From contig OY970208.1 of the NCBI GenBank assembly GCA_963713865.1, positions 651,957-715,956 of the forward strand: a DNA stretch of 64,000 nucleotides. The letters run 5' to 3'. The stretch comes from an uncultured candidate division Zixibacteria bacterium (GTDB taxonomy: Bacteria > Zixibacteria > MSB-5A5 > RBG-16-43-9). Below, piece after piece: positions 199 to 60,054 of this stretch. Numbering within the stretch: position 1 is the stretch's first letter; each line of letters starts with the position of its first letter. Both the position numbers and the translations under genes were made by a program. Below the pieces are notes generated by a model. That model did not search any database. It had not been told where the DNA came from and worked only from the letters and a program-made list of their open reading frames with translations.

Positions 199-330
199 GT
201 GTCATTCTGAGTCCGCCATAAGCGGACGAAGAATCTATTCATGGATCAAGGAGATTCTTCAGTCGTCCGCCTTTGGCGAGACTCCCTCAGAATGACAGGA
301 TGGACTTTTTCAACATACCTAAAGGTTCAC
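199..330. repeat. nested-palindrome repeat, H family, with terminal inverted flanks (cctaaaggga…ttgaaaaacc / tttttcaaca…cctaaagg)
   Basis: gtcattctgagtccgcc...gacgaagaatc...gattcttcagtcgtc...ctcagaatgac; copy of 29396-29515 and 59927-60054. Confidence 0.85.
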
Positions 331-344
331 ACTCCAAAATCCTT

Positions 345-1373
345 TCAACCTGACTCCTTTACATCCTCTAACAACTTCTGAATAATCTCAAATGTCCCTA
401 CCCCATCTGCCTCAGCATTAAAGCTGGTAACAATCCTGTGTCGCAAAACCGGCAGGGCAACAGCTCTTACATCCTCGCAGGAAGGGGTATATCGGCCATC
501 TAAAATAGCTTTAGTCTTTGCTCCCAAGACCATATATTGGGATGCCCTTGGACCTGCTCCCCAGGTAACCCAGTTTTTTATATATTCTAATGGCTTGTCT
601 ACCTCAGGCGGATCATTTAAAAGTGGGCGGGTATACCGGGCAAGTTTTACTGCATAATTTATCACATGGTCTGATACAGGTACTTTTCTGGCAAGTTTTT
701 GCAATCTAACGATCTCTTCAGCTCCCATAACCTTATCCAGGTTCCAGGAGTAAGCCGAGGTAGTAGACTTGACTATAAGATTTTCTTCGTCTGTTGATGG
801 ATAGTTTATATAGATATTGAACATAAACCGGTCTAACTGTGCTTCAGGTAAAGGATAGGTTCCCTCCTGTTCAATCGGATTCTGGGTGGCTAAGACAAAA
901 AAAGGTTCCGTGAGCTTGTAGGTTTGTCCACCAGCAGTTACCTCATGCTCCTGCATCGCCTGAAGCAAAGCTGACTGGGTCTTGGGAGGGGTCCTGTTGA
1001 TCTCGTCAGCCAGTATTATATTGGCAAAAATTGGCCCCTGGATGAATTTAAAAGCCCTTTCCCCAGTGGTTATATTCTCCTGAATTATTTCCGTCCCGGT
1101 AATATCTGAGGGCATCAAATCCGGAGTGAATTGGATTCTGCTGAATTTCAAATCTAAAATCCTTGAGATTGTGCTGATTAGAAGGGTTTTGGCTAACCCC
1201 GGAACTCCGATTAAAAGGCAGTGTCCATTGGATAATAAAGCAATCAATAACTCATCAATAACCTTATCCTGACCGATAATAACCTTCCTGATCTCCTTTT
1301 TTATCCTGTCCCTGGCATCTCTTAATTTCTCAACTGCTAAAAGGTCATCACCCACTGGCTTTTCATTAGACAT
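345..1373 (-). CDS. MoxR-like AAA+ ATPase
   Basis: 342 aa; Walker A-like LLIGVPGLAKT, typical MoxR length and motif order. Confidence 0.85.
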   Translation of the reverse strand: MSNEKPVGDDLLAVEKLRDARDRIKKEIRKVIIGQDKVIDELLIALLSNGHCLLIGVPGLAKTLLISTISRILDLKFSRIQFTPDLMPSDITGTEIIQENITTGERAFKFIQGPIFANIILADEINRTPPKTQSALLQAMQEHEVTAGGQTYKLTEPFFVLATQNPIEQEGTYPLPEAQLDRFMFNIYINYPSTDEENLIVKSTTSAYSWNLDKVMGAEEIVRLQKLARKVPVSDHVINYAVKLARYTRPLLNDPPEVDKPLEYIKNWVTWGAGPRASQYMVLGAKTKAILDGRYTPSCEDVRAVALPVLRHRIVTSFNAEADGVGTFEIIQKLLEDVKESG

Positions 1374-1392
1374 TAAACCTCCAGGTTTTTCG

Positions 1393-1612
1393 TTACCGTA
1401 ACGTCCTCACTCCTATTCTCCCCTCCCTTGACGACCGATTAAAGCTTTACGGTCCTACGGGCTACGCCCCCGCCTGTCGGCGGGAGGCTACGCTCCTCGT
1501 AGAGGAGGGGTTAAGGGGGAGGGTGACCCCTCTCCCTACCCTCTCCCACAGGGGGAGAGGGAATTATAATCGTTGTCACTGGAGTGGCAACGCTATCTTC
1601 TCCCTCGTTTTA
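1393..1612. repeat. composite GC-rich hairpin repeat, P family
   Basis: …gattaaagctttacgg…cgtagaggaggggttaagggggagggtga…ccctctcccacagggggagagggaat…. Confidence 0.8.
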
Positions 1613-1768
1613 TATTAATACGCAAAGAAGATAGAGTCAATTTAATTCTGGATGGAAAAAGAAAAATAGAAGATGAAAAATAACGCTCTTTGTGGGTGTC
1701 CTCACCAAAGACCAGCAGAAAGTTCGGAGTGCATCGTCCGTGACGACGCACTTCAAATCACCCAATAC

Positions 1769-2425
1769 TCACTCCACTACTATCTTTTTATCTCTTATAT
1801 AAACTTTCTTTGTTTCCCCTGGCTTCAAAATAAAAGTATCAGATTCAAGCTTCTCAGGTTTAACAAATAAGAGAATCTTTTTCCATTGGTAAATCTTGTT
1901 CCAGATCTCTGTTTGTCCCCCGGAAAGCGTATAAGCCTTCAAATCCTTTTGTAAGGTATCAGAAAATTCCTCTAACCGTGTTAGTTTATATCCATCTCTG
2001 AATCCAAAAAAGCTTAAGGAGTTATCCCAGTTTAAAACCTCTGCTTGGAGCTTGAGTTTTCTATTCCCTGATATCTCAAATGTTTCTTCATAGGTTTTTC
2101 TCTCTTTACCTGCAGAGTAAAGATATAAAGTCAAATAAGAATCACCAGCCGGTTCTGTTTTAATTTCTCCGACAAATTTTTCAGAAACCAAAGAATCATA
2201 AGGACGCAGATAATTCTGCATCTGAAAAAATAACCAGGCAAAAAAGATAAACAGGATTGAGAAAAAGAAAATTATAAATCTGATTAGAGCTCCATAACCT
2301 CTTTTCTCAGACTCGTCTTGAGCATAGCGAGCTCTGGCTAATATCCAGAAAAAGAGTATAAAAAGTAAAACCAAACCCAAGCCAAGAAAAATCCCCCCAA
2401 AAATTGCAATTTTTGTTTCAGGCAT
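1769..2425 (-). CDS. hypothetical membrane protein (downstream partner of MoxR ATPase)
   Basis: 218 aa; two hydrophobic helices at N-terminus; operon position after moxR. Confidence 0.5.
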   Translation of the reverse strand: MPETKIAIFGGIFLGLGLVLLFILFFWILARARYAQDESEKRGYGALIRFIIFFFSILFIFFAWLFFQMQNYLRPYDSLVSEKFVGEIKTEPAGDSYLTLYLYSAGKERKTYEETFEISGNRKLKLQAEVLNWDNSLSFFGFRDGYKLTRLEEFSDTLQKDLKAYTLSGGQTEIWNKIYQWKKILLFVKPEKLESDTFILKPGETKKVYIRDKKIVVE

Positions 2426-2529
2426 AATTCCCCCTCTCCGGGTTTTATGTCCTATAAACCGAAACTCAGATGATGATTTAAACCATTTATTTTACTCTTT
2501 AAGTTAACCCTAAAAAGAGTCAACATTTA

Positions 2530-2640: not shown

Positions 2641-2653
2641 TTGAAAAAAATTC

Positions 2654-3469: not shown

Positions 3470-3640
3470 CTTTCCCTTCCTTGATGGCCGATAAAAGCTT
3501 TACGGTGGCTACGCCCTTTGCTCCTCGTAGAGGAGGGATATAAGGGAGGGTGAAAGTATTTTTATTCCCCCTTCTCCCTAATCCTATCCCACGAGGGGAG
3601 AGGGAATAAACTTTCTTGGAACGGGCACCCTTGCCTGTCT
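3470..3640. repeat. composite GC-rich hairpin repeat, P family
   Basis: ttgatggccgataaaagctttacgg…cgtagaggagggatataagggagggtga…cccacgaggggagagggaat. Confidence 0.8.
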
Positions 3641-3663
3641 AATTGTTCCACTTATTAGAGTTC

Positions 3664-8365: not shown

Positions 8366-9883
8366 TTACTTAATAAGTAAAAGTTTTTTACAATCTTTAA
8401 ACTCAACTGTCCCGAAGGGATCCGTACGGACACTTAACTGATAGAAATAAATCCCACTTGACACCTCCTTCCCTGAATTGTCCTTCCCGTCCCAAACAAC
8501 CTGGTAAGTTCCTGACTGTTTTTCTTCATCTACCAGAGTTTTCACTTTTTGCCCTAGTAAATTATAAATCATCAGGGTAGTGGGGATGGGTTTGCCAAAC
8601 TCCAAACTCCCAACTCTAAACTGTATTATTGTGGATGAATTAAAGGGATTAGGGTAGTTTTGGCTCAATTCAAAGTTGTGAGGAAGAGTAGTTTGTTCTT
8701 CTTCAATCGCAGTATAAGGATTTTTATAAACATAAACCCTGCCTGGAGGATAGGATGGATTATTATACCACCAGCCAGGATCGCCTACTATGGCCTCATC
8801 TACTCCATCACCATTGATGTCAGCAACACTTACTTGACTACCATAATCACCCACTTCAGAATCATAATAATGCCAATCTTGTATTGTATCCAAAGGGTTA
8901 GAACCTAAATAGGTCCAAGCTTCCCCGCCAGCTAACGTTGGAACCCCCGAGAGTAGATCCTCATATTTATCTTTATTAAAATTGCCAATTGCCCAGGATT
9001 GACCTCTGATACAAAGAGGCGCGTCTATTAGAGAGTCTATTGTATTGCCTCCAAAATATGTTCCTTCAACTGTTATTATATCCTTATATCCATCTCCGTT
9101 AACATCTCCTAAAATTACAAATCCACCTTTTAATTTTACTCTTGGTATGGTGTCTAACTGCAGTCCCCCGAAATAAATATAGGTAGAGTCATCAGGATAA
9201 TGCTCGCTGGTGGAAACTGCCAAATCTCCATAACCATCCCCATTCATATCCCCTATGGCTAACCCGTCAAAACCAAAATAATTCGGAGGTCCCTGTAAAA
9301 CATAAGCAGGTGAGGTTGACATATCTGCCCCACCCAAATATACGTACACCCAGGTAGGACTTCCATGGATAGCAACATCATCATAACCATCCTTGTTAAT
9401 ATCACCCGTAGCAATATTATCTTCAAAATAAGGGGTTGCCAGAATTTTGTCTGGAACTGTATCAAAAGGAGTACCCCCATAATAAATCCAAACCGCTGAA
9501 AATGAAAATGGAGCTACAAGCAAATCTTCAATACTATCCCCATTCACATCACCAGCAGATATGTATCTAGATGAAAAAAGAAACATAACATCAGGAATAG
9601 TATCAAAATTCTTGGAGCCAAAATAGATAAAGGTTTTCCCTACTTGCCCTACTCCTAAATCTTCAAATCCATCCTTATTTATGTCCCCTATTCCAGCTAA
9701 AACATAACCAAAATAAAGAGTATCCCTTGCCCCTTGCATTACAGCTATCTGTTGCATACCAAACTGAGCTAAAGCGGAGTTACTAAAAAGTAAACTTAAT
9801 AACAAAACGATTAGAAAACTTTTCTTCTCTGACATTTCAAATCCTTGACTTATAATCTCAGTTCCTATCAATAAATTAAGCAA
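8366..9883 (-). CDS. FG-GAP (integrin-alpha-like) repeat protein with T9SS C-terminal sorting domain
   Basis: 505 aa; signal peptide; repeated DxNxDGxxD motifs (DINKDGFEDL, DVNGDSIEDL, DMNGDGYGDL); CTD NYPNPFNSSTII...GIYFYQL. Confidence 0.8.
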   Translation of the reverse strand: MLNLLIGTEIISQGFEMSEKKSFLIVLLLSLLFSNSALAQFGMQQIAVMQGARDTLYFGYVLAGIGDINKDGFEDLGVGQVGKTFIYFGSKNFDTIPDVMFLFSSRYISAGDVNGDSIEDLLVAPFSFSAVWIYYGGTPFDTVPDKILATPYFEDNIATGDINKDGYDDVAIHGSPTWVYVYLGGADMSTSPAYVLQGPPNYFGFDGLAIGDMNGDGYGDLAVSTSEHYPDDSTYIYFGGLQLDTIPRVKLKGGFVILGDVNGDGYKDIITVEGTYFGGNTIDSLIDAPLCIRGQSWAIGNFNKDKYEDLLSGVPTLAGGEAWTYLGSNPLDTIQDWHYYDSEVGDYGSQVSVADINGDGVDEAIVGDPGWWYNNPSYPPGRVYVYKNPYTAIEEEQTTLPHNFELSQNYPNPFNSSTIIQFRVGSLEFGKPIPTTLMIYNLLGQKVKTLVDEEKQSGTYQVVWDGKDNSGKEVSSGIYFYQLSVRTDPFGTVEFKDCKKLLLIK

Positions 9884-9903: not shown

Positions 9904-11394
9904 TTATTTGATTAACAAAAGTTTTTTACAATCTTTAAAACTGCCTGCCTTTAACTGATAGAAATATATTCCACTCGACACCTCCTTTCCTGAATTGTCC
10001 TTCCCATCCCAGATGATACTGTAACTACCTGGGGATTTATCTTCATCTACCAATGTCTTAACCAACTGCCCCTGAATATTATAAATCTTTAAGGTGATGT
10101 GGATGGGCCTCATAGCTCCAAGCTCCAAGCTACCAGCTTGGAAGGGTATGGTGGTGGAGAGGTTGAATGGATTGGGATAGTTTTGACCCAAAGCAAAAAT
10201 AGAGGGTAATTGCTGTGCTTCATCTTCAACCGCTGTATATGGATTCTTATAAATATAAACCCTGCCTGGTGGATAGGATGGGTTATTATACCACCAACCA
10301 GGGTCTCCTACAATTGCTTCATCCACTCCATCCCCATTAATATCTACCGCTCCTACCTGATCGCCGTATGCACCTACCTCATAATCACGATAGTGCCAAT
10401 CCTCTATTGTATCTAAGGGATTACCACCTAAATAAATTACTGCATCACCACCAACTATAGAGCCAGAGCCCCATAGATAATCCTCATATCCATCTTTATT
10501 AAAATTACCAATGACATTAGAGCGACCCCTTGTAAAAAGAGGTGAGTCCATTACTGAATCTATGGTAACTCCTCCAAAATAAGTTCCTTTATCTGTTATC
10601 AAATCCATATAACCATCTCCATTCATATCTCCTAATATAACATCCCCCCCCCTCAACTTCAATCCGGGAATTGTATCTAACTGCACTCCACCGAAATAAA
10701 TATAGGTAGAGTCATCAGGATAATGCTCGCTGGTGGAAACTGCCAAATCTCCATAACCATCCCCATTCATATCCCCTATGGCTAACCCGTCAAAACCAAA
10801 ATAATTCGGAGGTCCCTGTAAAACATAAGCAGGTGAGGTTGACATATCTGCCCCACCCAAATATACGTACACCCAGGTAGGACTTCCATGGATAGCAACA
10901 TCATCATAACCATCCTTGTTAATATCACCCGTAGCAATATTATCTTCAAAATAAGGGGTTGCCAGAATTTTGTCTGGAACTGTATCAAAAGGAGTACCCC
11001 CATAATAAATCCAAACCGCTGAAAATGAAAATGGAGCTACAAGCAAATCTTCAATACTATCCCCATTCACATCACCGGAAGATATATATACAGATGAAAA
11101 AGGAAACACTATATCCGGGATGGTATCAAAGTTTTTTGAACCAAAATATAGAAAGGTCCTACCCACTTGCCCAATACCTAAATCTTCGAATCCATCTTTA
11201 TTTATATCACCTATTCCAGCTAGAATATAACCAAAGTAAAGGTTGTCAGTCGCCCCCTGCATTGTAGCTATCAGTTGCATATCAAATTGGGCAAAAGCAG
11301 GGCTACAAAAAACTAAGCAAAAAAGCAAAAGAGTTAAAAATTCTTTTTTCTCTAACATTTCTACCATTTTCACTTTTTTAAAGATTGACCTCAT
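9904..11394 (-). CDS. FG-GAP repeat protein with T9SS C-terminal sorting domain (tandem paralog of 8366..9883)
   Basis: 496 aa; same architecture; central 385 bp identical to the neighbouring gene. Confidence 0.8.
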   Translation of the reverse strand: MRSIFKKVKMVEMLEKKEFLTLLLFCLVFCSPAFAQFDMQLIATMQGATDNLYFGYILAGIGDINKDGFEDLGIGQVGRTFLYFGSKNFDTIPDIVFPFSSVYISSGDVNGDSIEDLLVAPFSFSAVWIYYGGTPFDTVPDKILATPYFEDNIATGDINKDGYDDVAIHGSPTWVYVYLGGADMSTSPAYVLQGPPNYFGFDGLAIGDMNGDGYGDLAVSTSEHYPDDSTYIYFGGVQLDTIPGLKLRGGDVILGDMNGDGYMDLITDKGTYFGGVTIDSVMDSPLFTRGRSNVIGNFNKDGYEDYLWGSGSIVGGDAVIYLGGNPLDTIEDWHYRDYEVGAYGDQVGAVDINGDGVDEAIVGDPGWWYNNPSYPPGRVYIYKNPYTAVEDEAQQLPSIFALGQNYPNPFNLSTTIPFQAGSLELGAMRPIHITLKIYNIQGQLVKTLVDEDKSPGSYSIIWDGKDNSGKEVSSGIYFYQLKAGSFKDCKKLLLIK

Positions 11395-21524: not shown

Positions 21525-21744
21525 AGGATTGTTATAACGTAATTTCAGTTTATCATCGCACCTGCCCCACGGTGATTGTGACGATTAGTTGCAATGACTC
21601 ATCCGGTATGGTCTTCAGTAGTTCTATACAATCACCGGGATAAACAACAATTTGCTCTGACAGTGCAAATTTCTGAACTATTTTTCTCTTGTCGAACATA
21701 ATACTATGATAATAAAATGTAGGTTTAGAGTCAACGGATTCATT

Positions 21745-29324: not shown

Positions 29325-29395
29325 ATTTTTGATTATTATCTATTTTTGATATGGCGACCCAAAAAGAAACTTTTGAAAAACCAGAATTATCAAAG

Positions 29396-36749: not shown

Positions 36750-36975
36750 CGTTGTCACAGGAGTAACAACGCTACCATCATTTCCTCCTGTAGCGTCCTC
36801 ACTCCTGTCCTCCGGATCCGCTCCTAAGGATGAAGACGACTGTATTTCTCCTCCTTTGATGGCCGATAAAAGCTTTACGGCTCGTAGAGGAGGGGATAAA
36901 GGGGAGGGTGATTCCAAAATACCTTTATATTTACCCCTCTCCTTAATCCTCTTCCACAAGGGAAGAGGAAAATAT
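36750..36975. repeat. composite GC-rich hairpin repeat, P family (…gataaaagctttacgg…cgtagaggagggg…ggggagggtga…ccctctcc…ggaagagg)
   Basis: shares modules with 1393-1612, 3470-3640 and 59150-59345; ORF 36726..36959 is an artefact of this repeat. Confidence 0.8.
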
Positions 36976-37017
36976 CTTCTGCTATGCTGTTAATCATACA
37001 ACGTTATAATCTTTTTA

Positions 37018-47074: not shown

Positions 47075-47184
47075 CTGGAGTGTAATCCGCCTTTGGTGGA
47101 CAGCTTTACTTTATACCCTGGTCGATTCAAAAACAAAACGATTCATTTTGATAAACCTGAAGGTTTATAATCCAAAAACCTATC

Positions 47185-49432: not shown

Positions 49433-49653
49433 AGGATTTATTTTTAGTAAGGCAAACCTCCAGCTTTGCTCAGGCAACTCAAAAAAATAGAGACGCATAG
49501 CAATGCATCTCTACAAATTCTTTTCCCCTCTCCTCCCAGGAGAGGGTGAGGCTACCATTTCGCAACCTCATCTTGCTCTAAAAGTGAAATCGTAGGGGCA
49601 ATGCATGTCCAATTGGATCCATCTCGAAATTGCCCCTACCAGAATATTTAATC

Positions 49654-50070
49654 CTACTTCATCTTCAAGAGAGTCTTAAACGAATCCAGATGCCCTTCTT
49701 CATCCCCCAGGATTTCTTCAAACAACCTGCGGGTGGTGACATCATCTTCTTTATTTGCCAATTTGATGATCCCCTTATAAAGCTTAATAGCATCCAGCTC
49801 TGCCGCGATGTTGTCCTTAATCATCTTCGGTAAGCTACCACCAACCATAATCGTGGTGGGCTTGGTCGTAGGGGTTCCACCCAGGAAGTTTAACCTCTCC
49901 GCAATAGCCTCAGCATGTTTCATCTCCGTAATTGCGGTTTTCTCAAAAATCCCACTCACCCCCGGGCTTTCCATCCCCTCGCCCATCACATGCTGCCACA
50001 TATACTGGATGGATACCGCGATCTCCCGGGCAATTGCCTGATTCAGCCTGTTATTTAGCTCCTTGCTCAT
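49654..50070 (-). CDS. ferritin-like protein (bacterioferritin family)
   Basis: 138 aa; four-helix-bundle di-iron ligand pattern E..E..H / E..E..H. Confidence 0.65.
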   Translation of the reverse strand: MSKELNNRLNQAIAREIAVSIQYMWQHVMGEGMESPGVSGIFEKTAITEMKHAEAIAERLNFLGGTPTTKPTTIMVGGSLPKMIKDNIAAELDAIKLYKGIIKLANKEDDVTTRRLFEEILGDEEGHLDSFKTLLKMK

Positions 50071-50253
50071 CCTATCCCTCCGTTTTTGATTATGGGTTAA
50101 CTTATTTATTCTATTTTAATAAAACTACTAATTATAAAGAAAGCAAGGAAATTTTTGAAGTATAAAAAGATATTTTTTGTTTTCTATCTTATCCTGTCAT
50201 TGCGAGAAGTCTCGCCGAAGGAGGGACTCGCAATGACGTCCTATTAATAGCCT

Positions 50254-51219
50254 TTATTTCTTCCTCAAAAAATCCAACAGATTTTTCATATCCTCTGGCA
50301 ATTCCGATTCAAATTCCATATATTTTTCAGTTCTCGGATGAACAAAACCGATTTTTTTTGCATGCAGGGCTTGTCGGTCTATTAATTTCAAGACCTGATT
50401 AGCTTGAGTCTGCAAACTTTCCTTTATCATTCCAAGATGCTTTTTCCTGCCACCATATTCCGGATCGCCCATAATCGGGTGGTTCAGAAACAAAAAATGG
50501 ACCCTGATCTGATGAGTCCTTCCGGTTTTTAACTTTATGCGGAGACGATCTCCGAGTGGAAATCTTTCCAGTACTTCATATTCGGTAATAGCCTCCCTAC
50601 CGTCTTTTCTTAACACAACCATTTTCTTCCGGTCCTTTACCGATCTACCGATCAGAGTCTCAATTATACCCCTTTCCTTGGTGATATTACCCCAGCAGAA
50701 TGCTGCATATTCTCTGGTTAGAGTTCTTTCTTTAAGTTGAGCGACCAAACCATTATGGGCATAATCGTTTTTAGCCACAACTAAAAGTCCGGAGGTATTC
50801 TTATCCAGGCGATGGACAATACCTGGACGCAAAACCCCGTTTATCCCAGATAAATCTTTGCAGTGAAATAAAAGGGCATTGACTAAAGTATCTTTATAAT
50901 TCCCGGCAGCAGGATGAATCACCATCCCGACAACTTTGTTCACCACCAAAAGGTCTTTATCCTCATAAACAATATCTAAGGGTATATCCTGTGGCTCCAA
51001 AGATAATTTCTCGAGTGGTGGAATCTGAATGGAGATTTTCTCTTCGCCTTTTATCTTGTAATGCGATTTAACCATTCTATCCTGAACTAAAATCTTCCCT
51101 TCTTTGATCAACTTCTGAATCCGGGAGCGGGAGAGACCAAGCTCTTTCTCAGACAAGAATATATCTAACCTTTTGCCTTTATCCTCTGGTGCGGTTATTA
51201 ATTTAAGAAGCTCATCCAT
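50254..51219 (-). CDS. rluD: 23S rRNA pseudouridine synthase, RluD/RluA family
   Basis: 321 aa; S4 domain; catalytic HRLDKNTSGLL. Confidence 0.85.
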   Translation of the reverse strand: MDELLKLITAPEDKGKRLDIFLSEKELGLSRSRIQKLIKEGKILVQDRMVKSHYKIKGEEKISIQIPPLEKLSLEPQDIPLDIVYEDKDLLVVNKVVGMVIHPAAGNYKDTLVNALLFHCKDLSGINGVLRPGIVHRLDKNTSGLLVVAKNDYAHNGLVAQLKERTLTREYAAFCWGNITKERGIIETLIGRSVKDRKKMVVLRKDGREAITEYEVLERFPLGDRLRIKLKTGRTHQIRVHFLFLNHPIMGDPEYGGRKKHLGMIKESLQTQANQVLKLIDRQALHAKKIGFVHPRTEKYMEFESELPEDMKNLLDFLRKK

Positions 51220-51375
51220 TTAATTTTCACTGGAGTGTAAAGCCATCAAGGTCTTGTCCACAGGATCCTGGTGAAGACTTTAGCTTTACAATTTTCTTAT
51301 TATCTTTTATAAACCTAAAAGTTTATACTCCACCCTCTGGTAGCGTCCTTTTTCTGTGGTGACGATATACGTTTT

Positions 51376-51466
51376 TCGTCGTTGCGAGGAGTCCCGCCTT
51401 TGGCGTGACGACGAAGCAATCCGTACCTCATTGCGTGAACAGATTGCTTCGCAATGACAACTCAAA
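51376..51466. repeat. nested-palindrome repeat, G family
   Basis: tcgtcgttgcgaggagtcccgcctttggcgtgacgacgaagcaatc…gattgcttcgcaatgac. Confidence 0.8.
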
Positions 51467-51484
51467 TCTGCTTCGTCTGCTCCA

Positions 51485-52009
51485 TCAATCAGGTGTGAAT
51501 GCTCCTTTCCGGGGTCTTATCACATACCACAAAATCAATAACATTCCTATCGTTACTGCGCCATCTGCAACATTAAAGACTGGCCAGCGGTCTAAATAAA
51601 TGCCTGAGAAGTTTATATATCCGAATTTAATCGGGGGTATTCGAATATCGAAAAAATCAAAATCCAAAAAATCCAATACCTCGCCATATCTGAAGCGGTC
51701 TATAAGATTTCCTAAAGCCCCTCCTAAGATCAGGGGAAAAGTAAAATGTAAAAATTTTTCCTCTTTCTTGCTTTTGAAATAAAACCAGACCGCTACGATT
51801 ATTGCTAAAACCGAGAGGATGGTATAGAAGATATTGCTGCCTAACTTAGTTCCAAAAGCCCCACCGGGATTTAAAACATAGGTTAACCTAAAAAAATTGC
51901 CCAAAACCGGGATGGACTCACCCATTTTCATAGATGAGGACACCACAGTCTTGGACAATTGATCCAAAACCAATACCAACAGGCTAAACCATAAAAATTT
52001 TTTTCCCAA
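51485..52009 (-). CDS. lspA: lipoprotein signal peptidase II
   Basis: 174 aa; NPGGAFG, FNVAD motifs. Confidence 0.85.
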   Translation of the reverse strand: MGKKFLWFSLLVLVLDQLSKTVVSSSMKMGESIPVLGNFFRLTYVLNPGGAFGTKLGSNIFYTILSVLAIIVAVWFYFKSKKEEKFLHFTFPLILGGALGNLIDRFRYGEVLDFLDFDFFDIRIPPIKFGYINFSGIYLDRWPVFNVADGAVTIGMLLILWYVIRPRKGAFTPD

Positions 52010-52028
52010 TTCCTAAAAGCTAAAAAGA

Positions 52029-52418
52029 CTATTCGCTCTCCACCAGTTTCTTCTTCTCTTCCTTAGCCTTGCAATTGATACAGAGCCGTGCATGAGGGAC
52101 TGCTTCTAATCTGGTCGTATTTATCTCCTGATCACATTCCTGACACTTGCCGTAAGTTTTGTCTTTTATGCGGCGCAGAGCCTCGTCGATGTGATAGAGC
52201 AGTCTTCCGTTCTTGGAGGCGAAAAGAAACGCCTTTTCCCTTTCCATGGCATCGGTTCCCTGATCAGCCATATGATAGGAATAAGAGGACAGGTCTCCGG
52301 TGGAGTCCTTAATAGTTGTATCCAGAGCCTCCTTCTTCAAAAAACCCATCTCCGCTATCAGCTCAGCCCTTTTAGCCAGAAGGAGCTTCTCGTATTTTTC
52401 CAGATCTTTTTTCTTCAT
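52029..52418 (-). CDS. DksA/TraR family C4-type zinc-finger protein
   Basis: 129 aa; CQECDQEI...CINC zinc finger; coiled coil. Confidence 0.75.
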   Translation of the reverse strand: MKKKDLEKYEKLLLAKRAELIAEMGFLKKEALDTTIKDSTGDLSSYSYHMADQGTDAMEREKAFLFASKNGRLLYHIDEALRRIKDKTYGKCQECDQEINTTRLEAVPHARLCINCKAKEEKKKLVESE

Positions 52419-52421
52419 AAT

Positions 52422-55400
52422 TTAGATCCTGGTTACAGAGATTTCTGCTTTTTCTCCATTTATATCCCATTCTAAGGTGAGTTCTCCTTTCTCTCCCTTG
52501 TGGGATATAACCTTGGCTAAAGTCTCCTTTTTTATATAATCCTCAAAAGATTTTATAGCCTTTTCTAATCTTTCGGTTCCAATTATATTAACTTTAATCC
52601 GATCCATAACCTGAAATCCGGCCTGTCTCCTCATATTCTGTATCTTGTTCACTAACTCCCGGGCAAAACCCTCATCTTTTAAAGCCTCATTGATATACGT
52701 ATCAATCCCTACTTTGTATCCATCTCCGGACTCAACTAAAAGACCTTCTTTCTCTTTTTCTTCCAATTCCAGATCCTCTAAGGAAAGCTCAATCTTTTCA
52801 CCTTCTGATTCTACCTGAATTTTTTCCTGAGCTTTCAGCTCCTTCAGCTTCTCAGAACTTAAAGACCGTATAAGCTCAACCACCTGATTTACTTTCTTCC
52901 CGAACTTCGGACCCAGGCACTGGAACTTAGGCTTGGCTTTATAATCGACCAGAAATAGTTCATCCTGAACCAGGTTTATATGTTTAATATTTATTTCCTC
53001 AGAAATCAAGAGTAAAATTGGCTCAAGCTCATCTTTTTTTGCCCGCGGAGGGATTAATACGAACATCTTCTCCAAAGGCTGTCTTATCTTTATTCCAGCC
53101 CTGTTCCTTCCGGCACGGGCTAAGGATGCGATGATCCTGGCCTTGTCCATCCTCTCCTCTAATTTGAGATCGATTAACTTCTCCTTATAATCGGGGTAAT
53201 CCTCTAAATGAACGCTTTCATGAGTGCTATCAAACCTTCCAGCTAATTCTTGAAAGAGCTCCTCTGAGATAAAGGGAACAAAAGGAGCAATCAATTTAGT
53301 CAAGCTTACCAGAACCTCCCAGAGAGTTTGATAAGCACAATATTTATTTGAATCCAATCCGGATTGCCAGAACCTTTTGCGGTTTCTTCTCACATACCAG
53401 TTAGATAAATCCTCGATCACGAACTCCTGTATCTTCCTGGATGTCCTGGTAATATCATAATTATCTAAATCTGCTATCACTTCTCTGGTCAAAGAATTAA
53501 GTTTGGAGATAATCCACCTGTCGATCTCCGGACGATTCTTTACCTCGATTTTTTCCTTTTCAGGCTCGAACTTATCAATGTTAGCATAAAGGGCAAAGAA
53601 GGAATAGGTATTCCTCAGGGTGCTCAAGAATTTCCTTTCGACTTCCGTTACCCCCTCCATATCAAAACGGGTAGGAAGCCAGGGCTGGCTTACCCAGACC
53701 AGATACCATCTTAAGGCATCTGCTCCTTGATTATTCAGCACGTCCCAGGGATCAACCACGTTCCCGATATGTTTGCTCATCTTCTGCCCTTCTTTATCCT
53801 GTATGAACTCGATAACGATAACGTTCTTATAAGCCGGCTGGTCAAAAAGGAAGGTAGATATGGCTAAAAGTGAATAAAACCATCCACGGGTCTGATCTAT
53901 GGCCTCGCTTATAAACTCAGCCGGGAACATCTCCTTAAAATATTCTTTATTCTCAAAGGGATAATGAAACTGGGCATAAGGCATAGAGCCGGAATCAAAC
54001 CAGCAGTCGATAACCTCAGGCGTCCTTTTCATTAAACCCTTACATTTCGGGCAGGTTAAAGTTATTCCGTCTATCATCGGCTTGTGCAAATCTAATCCTT
54101 CAGGAACCTCTTTGCTCAAATCCTTTAATTCCTGAATACTGGCAACAGATTTCTCCTCACCACATTTCTGGCAGATCCAGATATTCAGGGGGGTTCCCCA
54201 GAACCTTTCTCTGGAGAGTGCCCAGTCGACGTTATTCTCCAGCCACTCCCCAAACCTCCCTTCTTTGATCTCCTCCGGATACCAGTTTATCTTCTTATTA
54301 TTAGAAATCAATTTATCTTTATAAGCAGTGGTCTTGATGTACCAGGATTTACGCGCATAATAAATTAAAGGGGAATCACATCTCCAGCAGAAAGGATAGG
54401 TATGCAGGTATTTTCCAGAATAGTAAAGGATTCCTCTTTTTTTCAAATCCTCCAGGATCAAAGGGTCAGCATCTTTTACAAATTTACCTTTCCAGGGGGT
54501 CACTTCATCTGTAAAACTTCCGGTAGAATCCACTGGTTGGACTAAAGGCAGGTTGTAAACTATTGATAAGTTGTAATCATCCGCTCCAAAAGCTGGTGCA
54601 ATATGCACAATCCCGGTTCCATCTTCAGTGGTAACAAAATCAGCCAAACAGACATAGAACGCTTTTTTCCGGTCTAATTTCGCATATTCAAACAGTGGGA
54701 AATACCTTATCTTTTCTAAGTCTTTCCCCTTAAACTCTTCTAAGATTTTATATTCACCTCGAATGACTTTATCTAAAAGTGGTTTTGCCAGGATTAATTT
54801 ATCTCCTTTATGTTCGATTTTAACATAATCGACATCCGGATGAACTGCTAAGGCAACATTGGAAATCAAAGTCCAGGGTGTAGTAGTCCAGACCAAGAAA
54901 TAGGTGTCCTCAAACTCCTCCAATCTTATTTTCACAAAAACCGAAGGATCTTCTACTTCTTCATAACCCTGGGCAACCTCATGGCTGGAAAGGGTTGTGC
55001 CGCACCTGGGGCAGTAAGGAACGATCTTGTGTCCTTTATAGATTAACCCTTTCTTATAATACTCTGATAAAATCCACCAGACCGATTCTATATATTCATT
55101 GGTATAGGTGATATAGGCATCTTTTAAATCCAGCCAGTAACCGATCCTCTCGGTCAGCTCATCCCAGTCCTTTAAATACCTGAAAACGCTTTCCTTGCAT
55201 TTAGCGTTGAAATTCTCAATCCCGTATTTTTCAACATCCTCCTTGGTTTTTAAACCTAATTCCTTTTCAACTTCAATCTCCACTGGAAGGCCATGCGTAT
55301 CCCAGCCAGCTTTCCTATCCACCCTGTATCCCCGCATAGTCTTGTATCTACAGATCAAATCTTTTATGGTCCGGGAGATAACATGATGAACCCCTGGTTT

Positions 55401-55559
55401 TCCATTGGCAGTAGGCGGACCTTCATAGAACACGAATTTTGGAGAATCCTTCCTTTTCTGGATGCTCTTTTCAAAGATTTTATTCTCCTTCCAGAAGGAT
55501 AAAATCCTTTTCTCCATCTCCGGATAGTTAAAATCTTCCTTTATCTCTTTAAATGCCAC
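52422..55559 (-). CDS. ileS: isoleucine--tRNA ligase
   Basis: 1045 aa; class I motifs (HHV-type HIGH, KMSKH); editing domain; ileS-lspA linkage. Confidence 0.95.
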   Translation of the reverse strand: MAFKEIKEDFNYPEMEKRILSFWKENKIFEKSIQKRKDSPKFVFYEGPPTANGKPGVHHVISRTIKDLICRYKTMRGYRVDRKAGWDTHGLPVEIEVEKELGLKTKEDVEKYGIENFNAKCKESVFRYLKDWDELTERIGYWLDLKDAYITYTNEYIESVWWILSEYYKKGLIYKGHKIVPYCPRCGTTLSSHEVAQGYEEVEDPSVFVKIRLEEFEDTYFLVWTTTPWTLISNVALAVHPDVDYVKIEHKGDKLILAKPLLDKVIRGEYKILEEFKGKDLEKIRYFPLFEYAKLDRKKAFYVCLADFVTTEDGTGIVHIAPAFGADDYNLSIVYNLPLVQPVDSTGSFTDEVTPWKGKFVKDADPLILEDLKKRGILYYSGKYLHTYPFCWRCDSPLIYYARKSWYIKTTAYKDKLISNNKKINWYPEEIKEGRFGEWLENNVDWALSRERFWGTPLNIWICQKCGEEKSVASIQELKDLSKEVPEGLDLHKPMIDGITLTCPKCKGLMKRTPEVIDCWFDSGSMPYAQFHYPFENKEYFKEMFPAEFISEAIDQTRGWFYSLLAISTFLFDQPAYKNVIVIEFIQDKEGQKMSKHIGNVVDPWDVLNNQGADALRWYLVWVSQPWLPTRFDMEGVTEVERKFLSTLRNTYSFFALYANIDKFEPEKEKIEVKNRPEIDRWIISKLNSLTREVIADLDNYDITRTSRKIQEFVIEDLSNWYVRRNRKRFWQSGLDSNKYCAYQTLWEVLVSLTKLIAPFVPFISEELFQELAGRFDSTHESVHLEDYPDYKEKLIDLKLEERMDKARIIASLARAGRNRAGIKIRQPLEKMFVLIPPRAKKDELEPILLLISEEINIKHINLVQDELFLVDYKAKPKFQCLGPKFGKKVNQVVELIRSLSSEKLKELKAQEKIQVESEGEKIELSLEDLELEEKEKEGLLVESGDGYKVGIDTYINEALKDEGFARELVNKIQNMRRQAGFQVMDRIKVNIIGTERLEKAIKSFEDYIKKETLAKVISHKGEKGELTLEWDINGEKAEISVTRI

Positions 55560-55582
55560 TTTGTATCACCTCAAGTTTATTA

Positions 55583-55650
55583 TATACGCAAATTTCATTG
55601 TCCTAAGTTGCACAAGTGAAACTTATTACAGGGTAACCGCTCCCTGCATA
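55583..55650. repeat. direct repeat flanking the HNH endonuclease gene (copy A, upstream of ileS)
   Basis: atatacgcaaatttcattgtcctaagttgcacaagtgaaacttattacagggtaacc versus 57174-57240 catatacgcaattttcattctcctaagttgcatactggaaacttactacaggctaaac (~80% identity). Confidence 0.7.
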
Positions 55651-55738
55651 AAAGAAGTTCCGCCGAAAACGGAATTTGGGTGAAGGTGCGAAGCACAAAC
55701 ACCGTGTTAGCTGAAGTATTTTTAATTTTCACTTTTCT

Positions 55739-57070
55739 TTAATAAATTGTATCCAATTTGCCTAAATTACATTCTTTACAAAGTGTCTGTAGATTATCAA
55801 AAGTTGTTTCTCCTCCATTTGAATATGGTATTTTATGGTCAATCTGTAATTCAATTTCAGGTGGTTTTCTTCCACATATCACACACATAAATTTATCTCT
55901 CTGCAAAACTCTAAAACGTAATCGAGGAGATGGAATCCTGGGAGTTTTCATTTCAATAATTTGAGTTTCTCCAGTTTTTTTTGCTTCAGTTGTTCCCTTT
56001 TGGGTTATCAAAGGGGTTACTTCTTGCTTATCCTCTTCAATATTCGTTTTAAACTCTTTATTTTCTGTATGCTCCTCATAATCACCTTTACGGTCATCAA
56101 CAAATGAATAAATTGCTTTCGTCCAGCTTCCAAATTTCTTTGCAAAAACACTCCGTGAAATTTGGCTATATTGATTCATTTCCCTCCATGTTGGCTGTCT
56201 TCCAAGCTTTTCCCAAATTCTTTGTAACTCAGAAAAAAGTTCCTCTCGTGAGTATTTTACATGACCGTCTTTCATACCAATCTTTTTTACGGCATTTTCC
56301 CAGCTACCAAAATGATTTTGAAAAGTTCCAATAGAATATTTGCCTCCATATTTTTTATAAGCTGAAAACTTCAATACCTTTAATTTATTTTTTTCAGCTA
56401 TTGTCTTTAATTGGGATAATAATAATTCAGGTGTAGCTTGACCTACCAATCCTTTTATATCATAACCAAATTTTAAACAAAATACTTCTACTGATTTTTT
56501 CCATGTTCCAAATTTTCGCTCGTAAACCCTCATGCTTATATTACTATTATCTCTAAATTCATCATAGGAAGGGCGTCTGCCGAACTTACCCCATACTCTT
56601 GACATTTCTAAAAATAATTCTTCTTCTGTAAATCCCCTTGGCTTAGGTTTAATAATTTTAATAATCTTTGGCTGTTTTTTCAAAGATAAAACATTTTCTA
56701 ACAGGTTCTGCCAGGAATTATGCCCTAAACGCTTTTTTAATGTTTCTACGCTATATTTTCCACCATTCTTAACATAGAAAGTCTGAGTAAAATACTTTCC
56801 TTGATTTAAGTCCTTTATTTTATTTAAATCTTTTGTCAAATCTATCGAGTTAATTGGTCCTCTCTCATATGGAAACCCACCTTTTTTCATTGCCTCTGGC
56901 CAAGAACCAAAGCGCTTGATTATAGTACTCGTATGAACTCTTGAATACCTATTAAAATCCCCTGTCTTTGGGGCTTTATTCATAAAATATGTAGATACTA
57001 CTCTCTTAATTTCAGCGATTATTGCTTCATCGCTATAATTTGTTAAACGATTTGGTTCGAAATTATTCAT
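55739..57070 (-). CDS. free-standing HNH endonuclease with N-terminal FGSW-repeat domain
   Basis: 443 aa; C-terminal HNH motif IDHKIPYSNGGETTFDNLQTLCKECN; four repeats of FG(S/T)WxxA; AT-rich; flanked by ~65-bp direct repeats. Confidence 0.75.
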   Translation of the reverse strand: MNNFEPNRLTNYSDEAIIAEIKRVVSTYFMNKAPKTGDFNRYSRVHTSTIIKRFGSWPEAMKKGGFPYERGPINSIDLTKDLNKIKDLNQGKYFTQTFYVKNGGKYSVETLKKRLGHNSWQNLLENVLSLKKQPKIIKIIKPKPRGFTEEELFLEMSRVWGKFGRRPSYDEFRDNSNISMRVYERKFGTWKKSVEVFCLKFGYDIKGLVGQATPELLLSQLKTIAEKNKLKVLKFSAYKKYGGKYSIGTFQNHFGSWENAVKKIGMKDGHVKYSREELFSELQRIWEKLGRQPTWREMNQYSQISRSVFAKKFGSWTKAIYSFVDDRKGDYEEHTENKEFKTNIEEDKQEVTPLITQKGTTEAKKTGETQIIEMKTPRIPSPRLRFRVLQRDKFMCVICGRKPPEIELQIDHKIPYSNGGETTFDNLQTLCKECNLGKLDTIY

Positions 57071-57173
57071 TGCAATTTTTTCAATTTAAAAATATTTCCG
57101 CTAACTTGTTCATCTCTGCATTGCCGATAAAAGCCTTACGGTTCGTAGAGCGAATATTATCCCATTTTAGGGG

Positions 57174-57240
57174 CATATACGCAATTTTCATTCTCCTAAG
57201 TTGCATACTGGAAACTTACTACAGGCTAAACATTCCAACT
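57174..57240. repeat. direct repeat flanking the HNH endonuclease gene (copy B, overlaps the 3' end of the CDF transporter gene)
   Basis: see copy A. Confidence 0.7.
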
Positions 57241-58117
57241 GCAAAGTGGTATGGGTAATGCCAAACTTCTCCTGCAAAATTCTATTTGCCTCTTTTAACA
57301 TCTGGTCGCTTTTGCTCACCATCTGGTCCTCTATAACTAAATGCCCGGATAAAGCGTAGATCCCTGAAGATATAGTCCAGAGATGCAAATCATGCACATC
57401 CTTAACTCCTTTGATCTTCTTGATCTCCCCAGCGATAGTTTCCGCATTCAGATGTTTAGGAACCGCCTCCAAGAGTATATTACTTGACTCGGTAATCAAA
57501 CCTATAGCCCCTCTCAAGATTATTCCGCCGATCAAAATTGCAACAATCGGGTCAATTAAATAGAATTTAGTAAAAAATATAATTATCCCTGCTACTATTA
57601 CTCCGATCGAAGACAAGGCGTCCCCTAAGATATGCAAGAATGCTCCTCTGATATTCAGATTACCCCTGCTTGAGCCTTTTAATATTAAGATCCCAATTAT
57701 ATTTACCACAAGCCCTAAGGTTGCAACTCCTAACATCAAAGGTGCTTTTATCTGCGGAGGGGCAAGAAAGCGTCTATAAGCTTCATAGAATATGTATCCA
57801 GAAATAAAAATCAAGGTTACTCCATTCAAAAGGGCAACTAAGATTTCCGTTCTGTGAAATCCGTAGGTTCTCCTGGCATCTGCCGGTCTTCTGGATAATT
57901 TTAAAGCAAAAAAACTCAAAGCCAGGGCTAAAGTATCGGTGAGCATATGCCCGGCATCACCGATTAGGGACAAACTACCGGATAATATCCCACCCAGAAA
58001 CTCCACTAAGGTCATCAGTGCAGTTAATAATAGAGGAATTACTAAAACCTTTGGCTCAGGTTTGAAATTATTGTTGTGATTATGCTCAGACATATTGATC
58101 TTTCGTAGCGTCCTCAC
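57188..58117 (-). CDS. cation diffusion facilitator (CzcD-like) transporter
   Basis: 309 aa; 6 TM helices plus C-terminal cytoplasmic domain; HxxxD-type motifs. Confidence 0.85.
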   Translation of the reverse strand: MRTLRKINMSEHNHNNNFKPEPKVLVIPLLLTALMTLVEFLGGILSGSLSLIGDAGHMLTDTLALALSFFALKLSRRPADARRTYGFHRTEILVALLNGVTLIFISGYIFYEAYRRFLAPPQIKAPLMLGVATLGLVVNIIGILILKGSSRGNLNIRGAFLHILGDALSSIGVIVAGIIIFFTKFYLIDPIVAILIGGIILRGAIGLITESSNILLEAVPKHLNAETIAGEIKKIKGVKDVHDLHLWTISSGIYALSGHLVIEDQMVSKSDQMLKEANRILQEKFGITHTTLQLECLACSKFPVCNLGE

Positions 58118-58218
58118 TTTTTGTCATTGCGAGGAGTCCACAGGACGACGAAGCAATCCGTCCCTCACAGAGTAAACAGATTGCTTCGTCTCGCCTTTGT
58201 GGCGGACTCGCAATGACA
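58105..58218. repeat. nested-palindrome repeat, G family (gtcattgcgag...gacgaagcaatc...gattgcttcg...ctcgcaatgac)
   Basis: copies at 50195-50239, 51376-51466, 58105-58218, 35652-35688; covaries with the H family. Confidence 0.85.
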
Positions 58219-58283
58219 AGAGAAGATGATAGCCGCAACCTTTAGGTTGCGTAAATCCTGATTTCGCAGGCTTAAGCCTGCGG

Positions 58284-59111
58284 CTACCACTTCAACTCCT
58301 CAACCACCTTAACTATAATCTTCTTCAGATTTGGCTCAGCCTTATTGGCTGTAGCTATTATCTCCTCTAAATTTGTCGGCTTTAAAGCATCTGGTAGCCC
58401 CATATCCGTGACAATCGAAAAACCCAGAACCTTCATTCCCTGATGCCTTGCTACTATAACCTCAGGCACAGTTGACATCCCAACCACATCTGCTCCAGTT
58501 CCTCTTAAAAATCTATATTCAGCTGCAGTTTCCAAATTAGGTCCGGCTACTGATACATAAACCCCTTTTTGCAATTTTGTGCCTAATTTCAATGCACAAT
58601 TTTCTGCTAAAGCGATCAATTCTTTATCATAGCAGTTATACATATCCGGGAACCTTGGACCTAAAAACTCATCATTTGGACCAATCAGAGGATTACTCCC
58701 TAAAAGATTTATATGGTCAGAAATAACCATTATATCTCCAGCTTTATATTGAGGATTCAATCCTCCGCAGGCATTAGAGACAATCAAAAGCTCAATCCCA
58801 AGGGCTTTCATCACCCGTAAGGGGAAGGTTACCTGCTGCATTGTATAACCTTCATAATAATGGAACCTCCCCTGCATAGCTAAAACCTTTTTATCTGAGA
58901 TTTTGCCAAATAAAAGCCTTCCAAAGTGGCTTTCCACAGTTGAGACCGGGAAATGGGGAATGTCCTGGTAATCTATCTTATGTTCTACTTTAATCCCTTC
59001 AGCTAAGGAACCCAGCCCTGTGCCCAGGATAATCCCTATCCGGGGCTTGTAATCTGCTTTTTTTAGAATAAAATCTTTTGCCTGTTTGATTTTTTCTTTC
59101 AGGTTTTCCAT
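58284..59111 (-). CDS. punA: purine nucleoside phosphorylase (PNP family I)
   Basis: 275 aa; GRFHYYEGY and VGMSTVPE motifs. Confidence 0.8.
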   Translation of the reverse strand: MENLKEKIKQAKDFILKKADYKPRIGIILGTGLGSLAEGIKVEHKIDYQDIPHFPVSTVESHFGRLLFGKISDKKVLAMQGRFHYYEGYTMQQVTFPLRVMKALGIELLIVSNACGGLNPQYKAGDIMVISDHINLLGSNPLIGPNDEFLGPRFPDMYNCYDKELIALAENCALKLGTKLQKGVYVSVAGPNLETAAEYRFLRGTGADVVGMSTVPEVIVARHQGMKVLGFSIVTDMGLPDALKPTNLEEIIATANKAEPNLKKIIVKVVEELKW

Positions 59112-59149
59112 TATTTACATCCGTTTTTTAAGATTCAAATTTCTTTCTA

Positions 59150-59345
59150 AGGTAGCGTACCCACTCTCGTCCTGCGGATCCGTTAATAGGATGAGGACGA
59201 GCATATTTCCCCTCCCTTGATGGGAGGGGATGAAGGGGAGGGTGAGATTATTTTTATTCCCCTCTCCCTAACCCTCTCCCACAAGGGGAGAGGGAATCAT
59301 ATCTCCGCTACCAGAGCAAGCCCTTGTTGGGCACGAGTGGCATCG
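59150..59345. repeat. composite GC-rich hairpin repeat, P family (ccctctccc...gggagaggg)
   Basis: ccctctccctaaccctctcccacaaggggagagggaat; related to the copies at 1393-1612, 3470-3640 and 36750-36975. Confidence 0.8.
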
Positions 59346-59900
59346 CTACCGTCTATCTCCTCTAAAATTTTCCTTCTTTTCAAACTGGTCAATCACCTTT
59401 TCCATCTCCTCATCTGATAAATCTTTTCTCTTTTCAGACCGAGATCCATCAGAGGATTCCTCTAAGCCCTCTAAAAGACTTTTATGCAGATCAAGCATAG
59501 ATTTAACCTTCAGGAGATACCCATCCTTCAGGTTTTTTAACTCATAAATCCCCCTCTTAAGATCGGACAGCTTCAAATTCGATTCCTCTAATAACCTCTG
59601 GCTTTTAAGCTTTGCCTCCCGGATTAATAGTTCAGCTTCCTTTTCTGCGTTTTTCTTAAGCTCGTCTGCACTTTTCTGAGTGGTGAGGATGACATTCTGA
59701 AGAGTCTCTTCCATATTCCTGTATTCGGAAAGCTTGTTTTCAAAGGAGGAAAGCTTCTCCTTTAAAAGATTAATTTCTTTTGTCCCCTCCTCAATCTCTC
59801 CTGCTAATATCTCTAAGAAACCATCCACCTCTAAGGGGTCATACCCCTTAAATTTCTTTTTAAACTTCTGATTCTTTACTTCAAAAGCTGTTATCTTCAT
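59346..59900 (-). CDS. DivIVA domain protein
   Basis: 184 aa; N-terminal FKKKFKGYDPLEVDGFLE DivIVA signature; coiled coil. Confidence 0.8.
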   Translation of the reverse strand: MKITAFEVKNQKFKKKFKGYDPLEVDGFLEILAGEIEEGTKEINLLKEKLSSFENKLSEYRNMEETLQNVILTTQKSADELKKNAEKEAELLIREAKLKSQRLLEESNLKLSDLKRGIYELKNLKDGYLLKVKSMLDLHKSLLEGLEESSDGSRSEKRKDLSDEEMEKVIDQFEKKENFRGDRR

Positions 59901-59926
59901 CTTTCACCTCCGGGATTTACTTGGGC

Positions 59927-60054
59927 TGTCATTGCGAGTCCGCCAAAGGCGGGTCATTCTGAGTCCGCAGGACGAAGAATCTTCATTTGAATCAACGAGA
60001 TTCTTCGGTCGTCTCGCTAAAGGCGGACTCCCTCAGAATGACAGGTTTTATTTT
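59927..60054. repeat. nested-palindrome repeat, H family, preceded by a partial G-family arm
   Basis: gtcattgcgagtccgccaaaggcgg + gtcattctgagtccgcaggacgaagaatc…gattcttcggtcgtc…ctcagaatgac. Confidence 0.85.

Follow-up and report, generated by a model that had tools for sequence, protein, structure and literature searches.

Inverted doublets of tagged hairpin units in intergenic regions of a Zixibacterial chromosome and the probable assignment of these repeats to the CGTC-REP and Ssn-related motif class

Two variants of a palindromic intergenic repeat, H and G, are found in a 64-kb stretch of the chromosome of an uncultured candidate division Zixibacteria bacterium (assembly GCA_963713865.1, contig OY970208.1, positions 651,957 to 715,956; the whole stretch of 64,000 nucleotides is called the window). 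These repeats are very probably inverted doublets of CGTC/TGTC-tagged units of the repetitive extragenic palindrome (REP) or Ssn-related motif (SRM) type, a class that brackets the gene of an Ssn-type nuclease elsewhere, and the window holds doublets without the gene. Both strands of the window were searched with the query GTCATTSYGAG, allowing at most one mismatch, and 100 dinucleotide-preserving shuffles served as the null. The search gives 14 matches, against a shuffle mean of 2.4 and a maximum of 10; none of the 100 shuffles gets to 14. The matches form inverted pairs at seven sites: 201/286, 29397/29469, 35652/35678 (degenerate), 50196/50227, 51378/51448 (one mismatch each), 58123/58207 and 59953/60032. 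All seven are intergenic with respect to the open reading frames (ORFs) of the window. An earlier model-made reading, based on the letters of this DNA without database searches (the sequence-only reading), had claimed at least seven intergenic copies, and each of the sites that it named carries such a pair. A looser scan for the two ends of the unit returns the same seven clusters and no convincing eighth; the weak extra candidates at 21572-21598 and 15056 were dropped after inspection.

Anatomy and covariation of the unit

The basic unit is a hairpin of 25-45 nt. It consists of a YGTC tag, a 5-mer, GAG, a variable GC-rich distal hairpin, CGA(A), the complementary 5-mer and a final C, and the distal hairpin (3-45 nt) stands behind a 5-bp stem and the GAG/CGA(A) internal loop. 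The sequence-only reading had described nested outer and inner inverted repeats, and its assignment of the pairing arms is wrong: the outer-arm 5-mer has its complement in the inner arm on its own side of the element (ATTCT...AGAAT, ATTGC...GCAAT). Either half thus makes up a complete hairpin unit by itself, and what was called a "nested palindrome" is a pair of such units, inverted relative to each other and with the tags outward. The layout of outer and inner arms is observed at five sites (three H, two G); the elements at 50196-50237 and 35652-35688 are short forms with outer arms around a single hairpin. What separates H from G is a single 2-nt change in a 5-mer present four times (ATTCT/AGAAT versus ATTGC/GCAAT), and the substitutions are paired and compensated on both arms, as the sequence-only reading described.

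As single-stranded DNA (ssDNA), all eight complete units of the window fold alike, with the 5-bp stem, the GAG/CGA internal loop and the distal hairpin. The left unit of the first H doublet (H1) has a DNA fold of -9.3 kcal/mol (z = -4.8), the right unit only -6.6 kcal/mol (z = -0.73), and the doublet as a whole (201-296) -29.8 kcal/mol (z = -8.2). A four-way structure of -32.6 kcal/mol (z = -7.9) is obtained for the G doublet at 58123-58217, and the short element 35652-35688 folds with -9.6 kcal/mol (z = -4.4). Whole doublets give long hairpins or four-way structures of -22 to -33 kcal/mol, with z of -5 to -8. The GAG/CGA loop presumably consists of tandem sheared G.A pairs and a closing G-C pair, which would keep the helix continuous. 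Every doublet of the window combines one short-loop unit and one long-loop unit (GAG-GAG...CGAC-GAAG); its arms are therefore never perfectly symmetrical. The base before GTC in the window units is T in six cases, C in one and G in one. Counted over all loci, 515 of the 594 units among the matches listed have C or T at position -1.

To look beyond the window, one genome per species was scanned with the pattern GTCATTSYGAG-N(5-35)-GAAG-N(0-1)-AATC, which yields at least 120 stretches. In these loci and the window, the strict units number 203; their 5-mers come in nine variants, and every variant has its complementary tail. Selection on the hairpin over the sequence, also proposed earlier, is borne out by these variants: at least nine 5-mers keep their complementary partner, and the distal hairpin varies in sequence and remains a hairpin. 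Adjacent units make up 58 pairs among the matches listed; in 42 of them the units are inverted and point their tags outward, and 12 of these 42 inverted doublets mix variants, for example ATTCT with ACCCT or ATCCT. The pairing of outer arm with outer arm is broken in the mixed doublets and that within each unit is intact. Thus, the conserved structure is the hairpin of the unit. Because the seed pattern forced complementarity for ATTSY units, the pairing was recounted on loci picked by protein or synteny alone. A perfectly complementary tail is found there for 127 of 190 ATTGC heads, 18 of 21 ATTCT, 8 of 15 ATCCT, 4 of 5 ATTAC, 3 of 7 ATTCA, 2 of 5 ACCCT and 2 of 4 ACTGC heads. Overall, 255 stems are perfect and 25 have one mismatch.

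Spread, link to a GIY-YIG gene and turnover

The scan matches (at least 120) come from Nitrospirae, Alpha-, Delta- and Gammaproteobacteria, Chloroflexi, Patescibacteria, Bacteroidota, Acidobacteria, Cyanobacteria, Zixibacteria, Ignavibacteria and Omnitrophota, among others, and the motif is present in more than 100 unrelated genomes. We clustered all ORFs within 400 nt of the units across 120 loci (at least 120 exist). The sole specific recurrent neighbour, among the matches listed, is a protein of ~95 amino acids that contains a GIY-YIG domain alone. These proteins are 93-109 amino acids long and match PF01541 only, and of the solved structures, those of the UPF0213 proteins BH0048 and EF2693 are closest to them. 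The GIY-YIG ORF lies between two inverted units in three of the scanned loci (L011, L074 and L112). At L112 (4900-5650) this unit-ssn-unit element is located at the 5' end of a pheT-like gene, with ~110 nt from the start of that gene present in duplicate, once on either side of the element; it is a single case, which could be an assembly artefact.

The link is also observed in the reverse direction. Eighty metagenome loci were fetched by protein similarity alone, and the 71 with full flanks were counted. A strict unit within 150 nt and in the expected orientation is found in 41 of the 71 (58%), and on both sides in 26 (37%). The stop codon of the GIY-YIG gene often directly abuts the 3' unit. 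Most of the remaining protein-picked loci have variant units, by eye. In L160 and L191, homologous proteins are flanked by hairpins with a continuous stem of the canonical Neisseria Transformation Sequence (NTS) type, e.g. TGTCATTCCCGCGAAAGCGGGAATCCGG, and the published SRM pattern matches them. Similar canonical-looking hairpins are seen by eye in L188, and the protein of L172 is flanked by a match to the SRM pattern. With 51-57% identity to the L160 and L191 proteins, which have these canonical NTS units at their sides, the unit-flanked GIY-YIG proteins would be members of the Ssn family. The clades of the GIY-YIG proteins follow the 5-mer type of the flanking units.

The occupancy of individual spacers was compared with that in syntenic contigs from relatives; RluD homologues 80-93% identical are annotated as candidate division Zixibacteria, and the exact RluD sequence of the window is absent from the collection searched. 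The H doublet in the spacer between yggS and divIVA has an orthologous H doublet in L205; in L201 and L203 it is absent and unrelated hairpins are found. The spacer between the purine-nucleoside phosphorylase and cation-efflux genes (PNP-CDF) contains a G doublet in the window and in L203, a short G form in L205 and none in L201. Between lspA and rluD, the G doublet of the window (51378-51458) has no counterpart in any of the four relatives examined. Downstream of rluD, the window has a short G form, L208 and L209 have orthologous, further decayed short G forms, L207 and L201 a full G doublet, and L203 none. Orthologous copies have identical heads and tails and diverged distal hairpins and spacers, as in the L203 ortholog of 58123-58217, in which heads and tails are identical and the distal hairpin is different. 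A G half-unit remnant stands beside the H doublet of L205, likewise as in the window (see below). Such filled, empty and differently filled sites fit mobile, or at least fast-turning-over, elements with constrained recognition parts. A clean empty-site comparison for ends or footprints was tried and given up, as the relatives are too divergent; at the PNP-CDF spacer the flanks align on one side only. Within the window, one spacer is common to three H copies and another to two G copies. This indicates that whole doublets were copied.

Class membership and competing explanations

Repeats of this kind are already described as a class, so that the novelty is modest and concerns the Zixibacterial host, the interrupted-stem subtype and the presence/absence differences in relatives. 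Di Nocera, De Gregorio and Rocco (BMC Genomics 2013, PMC3733652) described CGTC-tagged REPs, with the tag CGTC or TGTC (or CCTC) and a stem that starts A-T. They have a continuous 8-9-bp stem, a 4-5-nt loop and a short unpaired CCA tail; occur mainly as inverted dimers, often of unlike units, in extragenic positions downstream of ORFs in five phyla; and "apparently lack a dedicated transposase" (PMC3733652). The super-family takes in Neisseria dRS3 and Rickettsia RPE-4 and RPE-6 (PMC3733652). The window units agree with it in the tag (unpaired YGTC), in the A-T stem start (ATTCT/AGAAT, ATTGC/GCAAT; other variants start A(T/C)), in the predominance of inverted dimers given above, in the extragenic location, which holds for every window copy, in the co-residence of families and in showing no transposase association. 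In place of the CCA tail they have C and then variable bases, with CCAG in alphaproteobacterial copies only, and Zixibacteria are outside the five phyla listed (PMC3733652). All H. neapolitanus CGTC-1 dimers lie within a GAAAaACC...GGTaTTTC palindrome (PMC3733652), and the TTGAAAAACC...TTTTTCAA flanks around two H doublets of the window resemble it.

Chenal et al. (Nat Commun 2025, PMC11893778) showed that Neisseria dRS3 belongs to an oriented hairpin, the NTS (CGTCATTCCCGCGMAVGCGGGAATCYRG), and hairpins related to it are the SRM. An SRM lies beside 71% of ssnA homologues and on both sides in 42%, SsnA being a 94-amino-acid single-domain GIY-YIG protein (PMC11893778). For binding and for cutting by Ssn the hairpin has to be ssDNA and in one orientation; the nick falls a few nucleotides upstream of the tag, and there is no cutting of the reverse strand, double-stranded DNA or RNA (PMC11893778). 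In N. meningitidis, Ssn restricts transformation by NTS-containing DNA, and the authors note that NTS-ssnA-NTS resembles an insertion sequence; where published, SRM/NTS copies number in the hundreds per genome and are intergenic (PMC11893778). The units studied here share the oriented hairpin, the unpaired (C/T)GTC on the 5' side, the AT stem start and the repeat-ssn-repeat arrangement around a gene for a ~94-amino-acid GIY-YIG protein. This arrangement is found in other genomes, and its frequency (58% near, 37% on both sides) resembles the published 71% and 42%, for a different unit subtype. They differ in the host and in the stem, which is interrupted after 5 bp by the conserved GAG / CGA(A) and followed by a distal hairpin that varies in length and in sequence.

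A further likeness is to REP doublets forming hairpins (REPINs) and their REP-associated tyrosine transposases (RAYTs; Bertels and Rainey 2011, PMC3116915). There, short palindromic units are likewise organised as doublets, the copying unit is an intergenic inverted doublet with a spacer, and one nuclease or transposase gene is flanked by units. The REPIN/RAYT system is different in its GTAG tag and HUH tyrosine transposase, compared with YGTC and a GIY-YIG nuclease, and it is lineage-specific and vertically inherited; the units here are nearly identical across phyla.

Several observations weigh against the assignment. Where CGTC REPs have a continuous 8-9-bp stem, that of the window units gives way after 5 bp to an internal loop, with a distal hairpin beyond it. 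The published SRM pattern, HGTCWYN(0-2)YYVSBRHN(0-5)WNVSBRGN(0-2)RNCYNB, matches none of the window units and, among the matches listed, none of 203 interrupted-stem units; it does match canonical NTS test sequences and the units in L160, L172 and L191. An ssn/GIY-YIG gene was found neither in the 64-kb window nor in ~180 kb of related Zixibacterial DNA. No target-site duplication is seen around 26 complete unit-gene-unit elements, with a mean longest shared string of 5.5 nt compared with 4.9 nt in controls. We place the window units in the CGTC-REP / SRM class as a variant in structure and do not count them as canonical NTS, because the tag, the A-T start, the dimers, the location and, in other genomes, the ssn linkage agree with the class and the stem and the SRM pattern do not.

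With this assignment, the following account is the most likely. The doublets would have arisen by intragenomic copying of whole doublets, with heads and tails constrained as the recognition structure of the nuclease. At ssDNA stages (replication, uptake, repair) they may serve as binding and cleavage sites of an Ssn, which this genome would encode, and some copies would then decay into the short forms. Cleavage of the interrupted-stem subtype by its Ssn, an Ssn gene in this genome, the mode of copying and a benefit to the host are the parts that we infer. The sequence-only reading had named RNA or cruciform DNA as the selected form; by analogy to the characterised Ssn, which acts on its hairpin only as ssDNA (PMC11893778), ssDNA would be the better reading. 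A further-reaching version is offered as a tentative idea that we think may well fail: the interrupted-stem units would be a distinct, bacteria-wide subclass of Ssn hairpins, their 5-mer a specificity code co-evolving with Ssn clades, a genome with both H and G would have hosted two Ssn specificities, and copying would be Ssn-dependent, via ssDNA and without target duplication.

The strongest competitor is a role at the RNA level, in which the repeats are transcribed with the upstream gene and act as mRNA 3'-end stabilisers, terminators or RNase targets, and the covariation reflects selection on an RNA hairpin. The copies are all in spacers between co-directional genes, several of them 5-27 nt past the end of the upstream ORF, the doublets are very stable hairpins, and many REPs are plausibly transcribed (PMC3733652). 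However, none of the four doublets and short forms at 49000-61000 is followed by a T-run or called terminator-like, and these elements do not have the GC-rich hairpin plus T-run of an intrinsic terminator. Rfam has no match to the repeats: with gathering and with permissive thresholds nothing was found in the window, only 6S RNA and a tRNA were found in 20 related loci, both elsewhere, and the sub-threshold matches are generic miRNA-hairpin models. An RNA structure would predict an excess of G:T (G:U) among the mismatches. The one-mismatch stems, read on the tagged strand, show no such excess, with 4 G:T versus 9 A:C; these are too few to decide and give RNA no support. In addition, the characterised relatives of the linked nuclease act on ssDNA, not on RNA (PMC11893778). 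Thus, we regard a primary RNA role as unlikely, and a secondary effect on mRNA is possible.

Still more doubtful, and in our opinion very improbable, is a classical MITE (miniature inverted-repeat transposable element) or REPIN, i.e. an insertion sequence shortened by deletion and moved in trans by a transposase of the DDE or HUH (RAYT / IS200-IS605) kind. The inverted-repeat architecture, the intergenic location, the spacers common to copies, the patchiness among relatives and a doublet layout like that of REPINs (PMC3116915) all favour it. Against these, no transposase family recurs beside the units in the 120 loci, among the matches listed; the tag is YGTC, not GTAG; the target-site duplication is missing as described; and the CGTC REPs are likewise without a linked transposase (PMC3733652). 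The label "MITE-like" thus holds for non-autonomous inverted doublets that are patchy in relatives and fails for a MITE in the classical sense. Chance or a low-complexity by-product, which could be thought of for motifs this short, can be dismissed in view of the excess over all shuffles, the paired layout and the occurrence in unrelated genomes.

Other readings were considered and set aside. By inspection, the units are not a hammerhead or other ribozyme (GUC...CUGAG...CGAAG), as the G type has GC in place of the CU of CUGAG, which changes together with the tail. Nor are they integron attC sites, since they are without the R''/R' core sequences and stand next to housekeeping genes. An origin of the H spacers from the two ends of an ssn ORF, 5' and 3', joined together (ATGAATCAA versus ATGAAATCAATG in L011) has a match of only 9-10 nt. 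A literature search on the repeat sequence strings returned primer and vector matches only.

Elements of the window and their setting

The genes beside the copies are housekeeping genes: MoxR ATPase, dciA, an AIR-synthase-like gene, ferritin/Dps, rluD, lspA, a cation-efflux gene, purine-nucleoside phosphorylase, divIVA and yggS. The H copies were correctly located by the sequence-only reading and given too long spans; their cores are 201-296, 29397-29479 and 59953-60042. In H doublet 1 (201-296), the left unit at 201-235 (+) is GTCATTCTGAG-TCCGCCATAAGCGGA-CGAAGAATC, the spacer occupies 236-252, and the right unit at 253-296 (-) is of the long-loop type, GAG-GGAG...CGAC-TGAAGAATC. An extended H1 element at 174-313 includes flanks common to H2 only, TTGAAAAACCGGAACTAATACAGT on the left (174-200) and AGGATGGACTTTTTCAAC on the right (297-313), with CCTAAAGG just beyond on both sides. 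H doublet 2 (29397-29479) has its left unit at 29397-29429 (+) and its right unit, in which the distal hairpin is decayed, at 29447-29479 (-); the extended flanks of this doublet are 29373-29396 and 29480-29497. The longer terminal flanks that had been ascribed to the H copies (TTGAAAAACC / TTTTTCAA / CCTAAAGG) are present in two of the three and not in the third, and the left CCTAAAGGG in one copy only. TTGAAAAACCRGAAYTA has just two exact matches, at 177 and 29373; the 209 loci examined contain no further one. We rejected the TTGAAAAACC flank as a general feature: it is limited to two window copies and surrounds units in no other locus examined.

H doublet 3 (59953-60042) contains units 59953-59981 (+) and 59999-60042 (-) and stops 5 nt past the 3' end (60048) of the distal yggS ORF (-). 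It is directly adjoined by a G half-unit at 59928-59952 (+), with the head GTCATTGCGAG, the hairpin TCCGCCAAAGGCGG and no tail, which suggests a nested or adjacent insertion. A mechanical 132-amino-acid ORF at 59932-60330 (+) runs through this doublet and is an example of a spurious ORF made by the repeat. In the window, yggS (Ala_racemase_N, 60048-60736, -) consists of two abutting ORFs of 143 and 85 amino acids with a one-base overlap at 60305; it is a single gene of 229 amino acids in the relatives, and the split is a frameshift (pseudogene) or a sequencing error.

The G doublet at 58123-58217 has a long-loop unit at 58123-58158 (+) and a short-loop unit at 58179-58217 (-). In the degenerate G doublet at 51378-51458, the long-loop unit 51378-51421 (+) starts GTCgTTGCGAG, and the minimal right unit 51442-51458 (-) is GTCATTGCGAAGCAATC, without a distal hairpin. 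The short G element at 50196-50237, 16 nt 3' of the rluD stop codon, consists of GTCATTGCGAG, one hairpin and CTCGCAATGAC. The short degenerate G-type element at 35652-35688 lacks inner arms; its outer arms, GTCATTGCGtt / cTTGCAATGAC, enclose a single hairpin.

Further repeats were observed in the window. A second composite intergenic family is located at 1421-1568, 3474-3611, 36849-36976, 57110-57150 and 59215-59301 and is built as CCCTCC...GCCGATAAAAGCTTTACGGC-TCGTAGAG-GAGGGG, then GGGGAGGGTGA..., then CCCTCTCCC-ACAA-GGGGAGAGGG. The GTAG beside its hairpin suggests a putative REP of the GTAG type. The family also occurs in L201, L205 and L207 at other, non-orthologous spacers. A hairpin AGAGGCGCATAGCTATGCGTCTCT is found at 114-154 and, inverted, at 49482-49522. 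The second of these copies resembles a terminator, having a T-run on the - strand, and L208 contains a hairpin like AGAGGCGCATAGCTATGCGTCTCT. Positions 1725-1750 and 61398-61423 form an inverted pair of 26 nt, CGGAGTGCATCGTCCGTGACGACGCA, with a similar hairpin in the lspA-rluD spacer of L203. The small hairpin (T)AAACCTnnAGGTTTA with adjacent ACTCCA / GGAGTG is repeated at 314-356, 39846-39888, 47152-47194, about 51300-51335 and 63814-63849, and a copy of it is conserved upstream of rluD in L201, L203 and L205. Two tandem paralogous genes at 8366-9883 and 9904-11394 (-) are ~77-80% identical in DNA and have an internal repeat of ~150 nt.

For general biology, these results are incremental. For the organism, they place puzzling intergenic palindromes of an uncultured phylum in a class with a biochemically defined partner, Ssn, at the probability stated at the outset, and one Zixibacterial chromosome is found to hold two unit subtypes side by side. 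The units mark quickly changing intergenic regions, and in annotation they generate spurious ORFs. Surveys of SRM and of Ssn specificities, which are of interest for ssDNA tools, likely undercount, because the published motif misses the very common interrupted-stem subtype.

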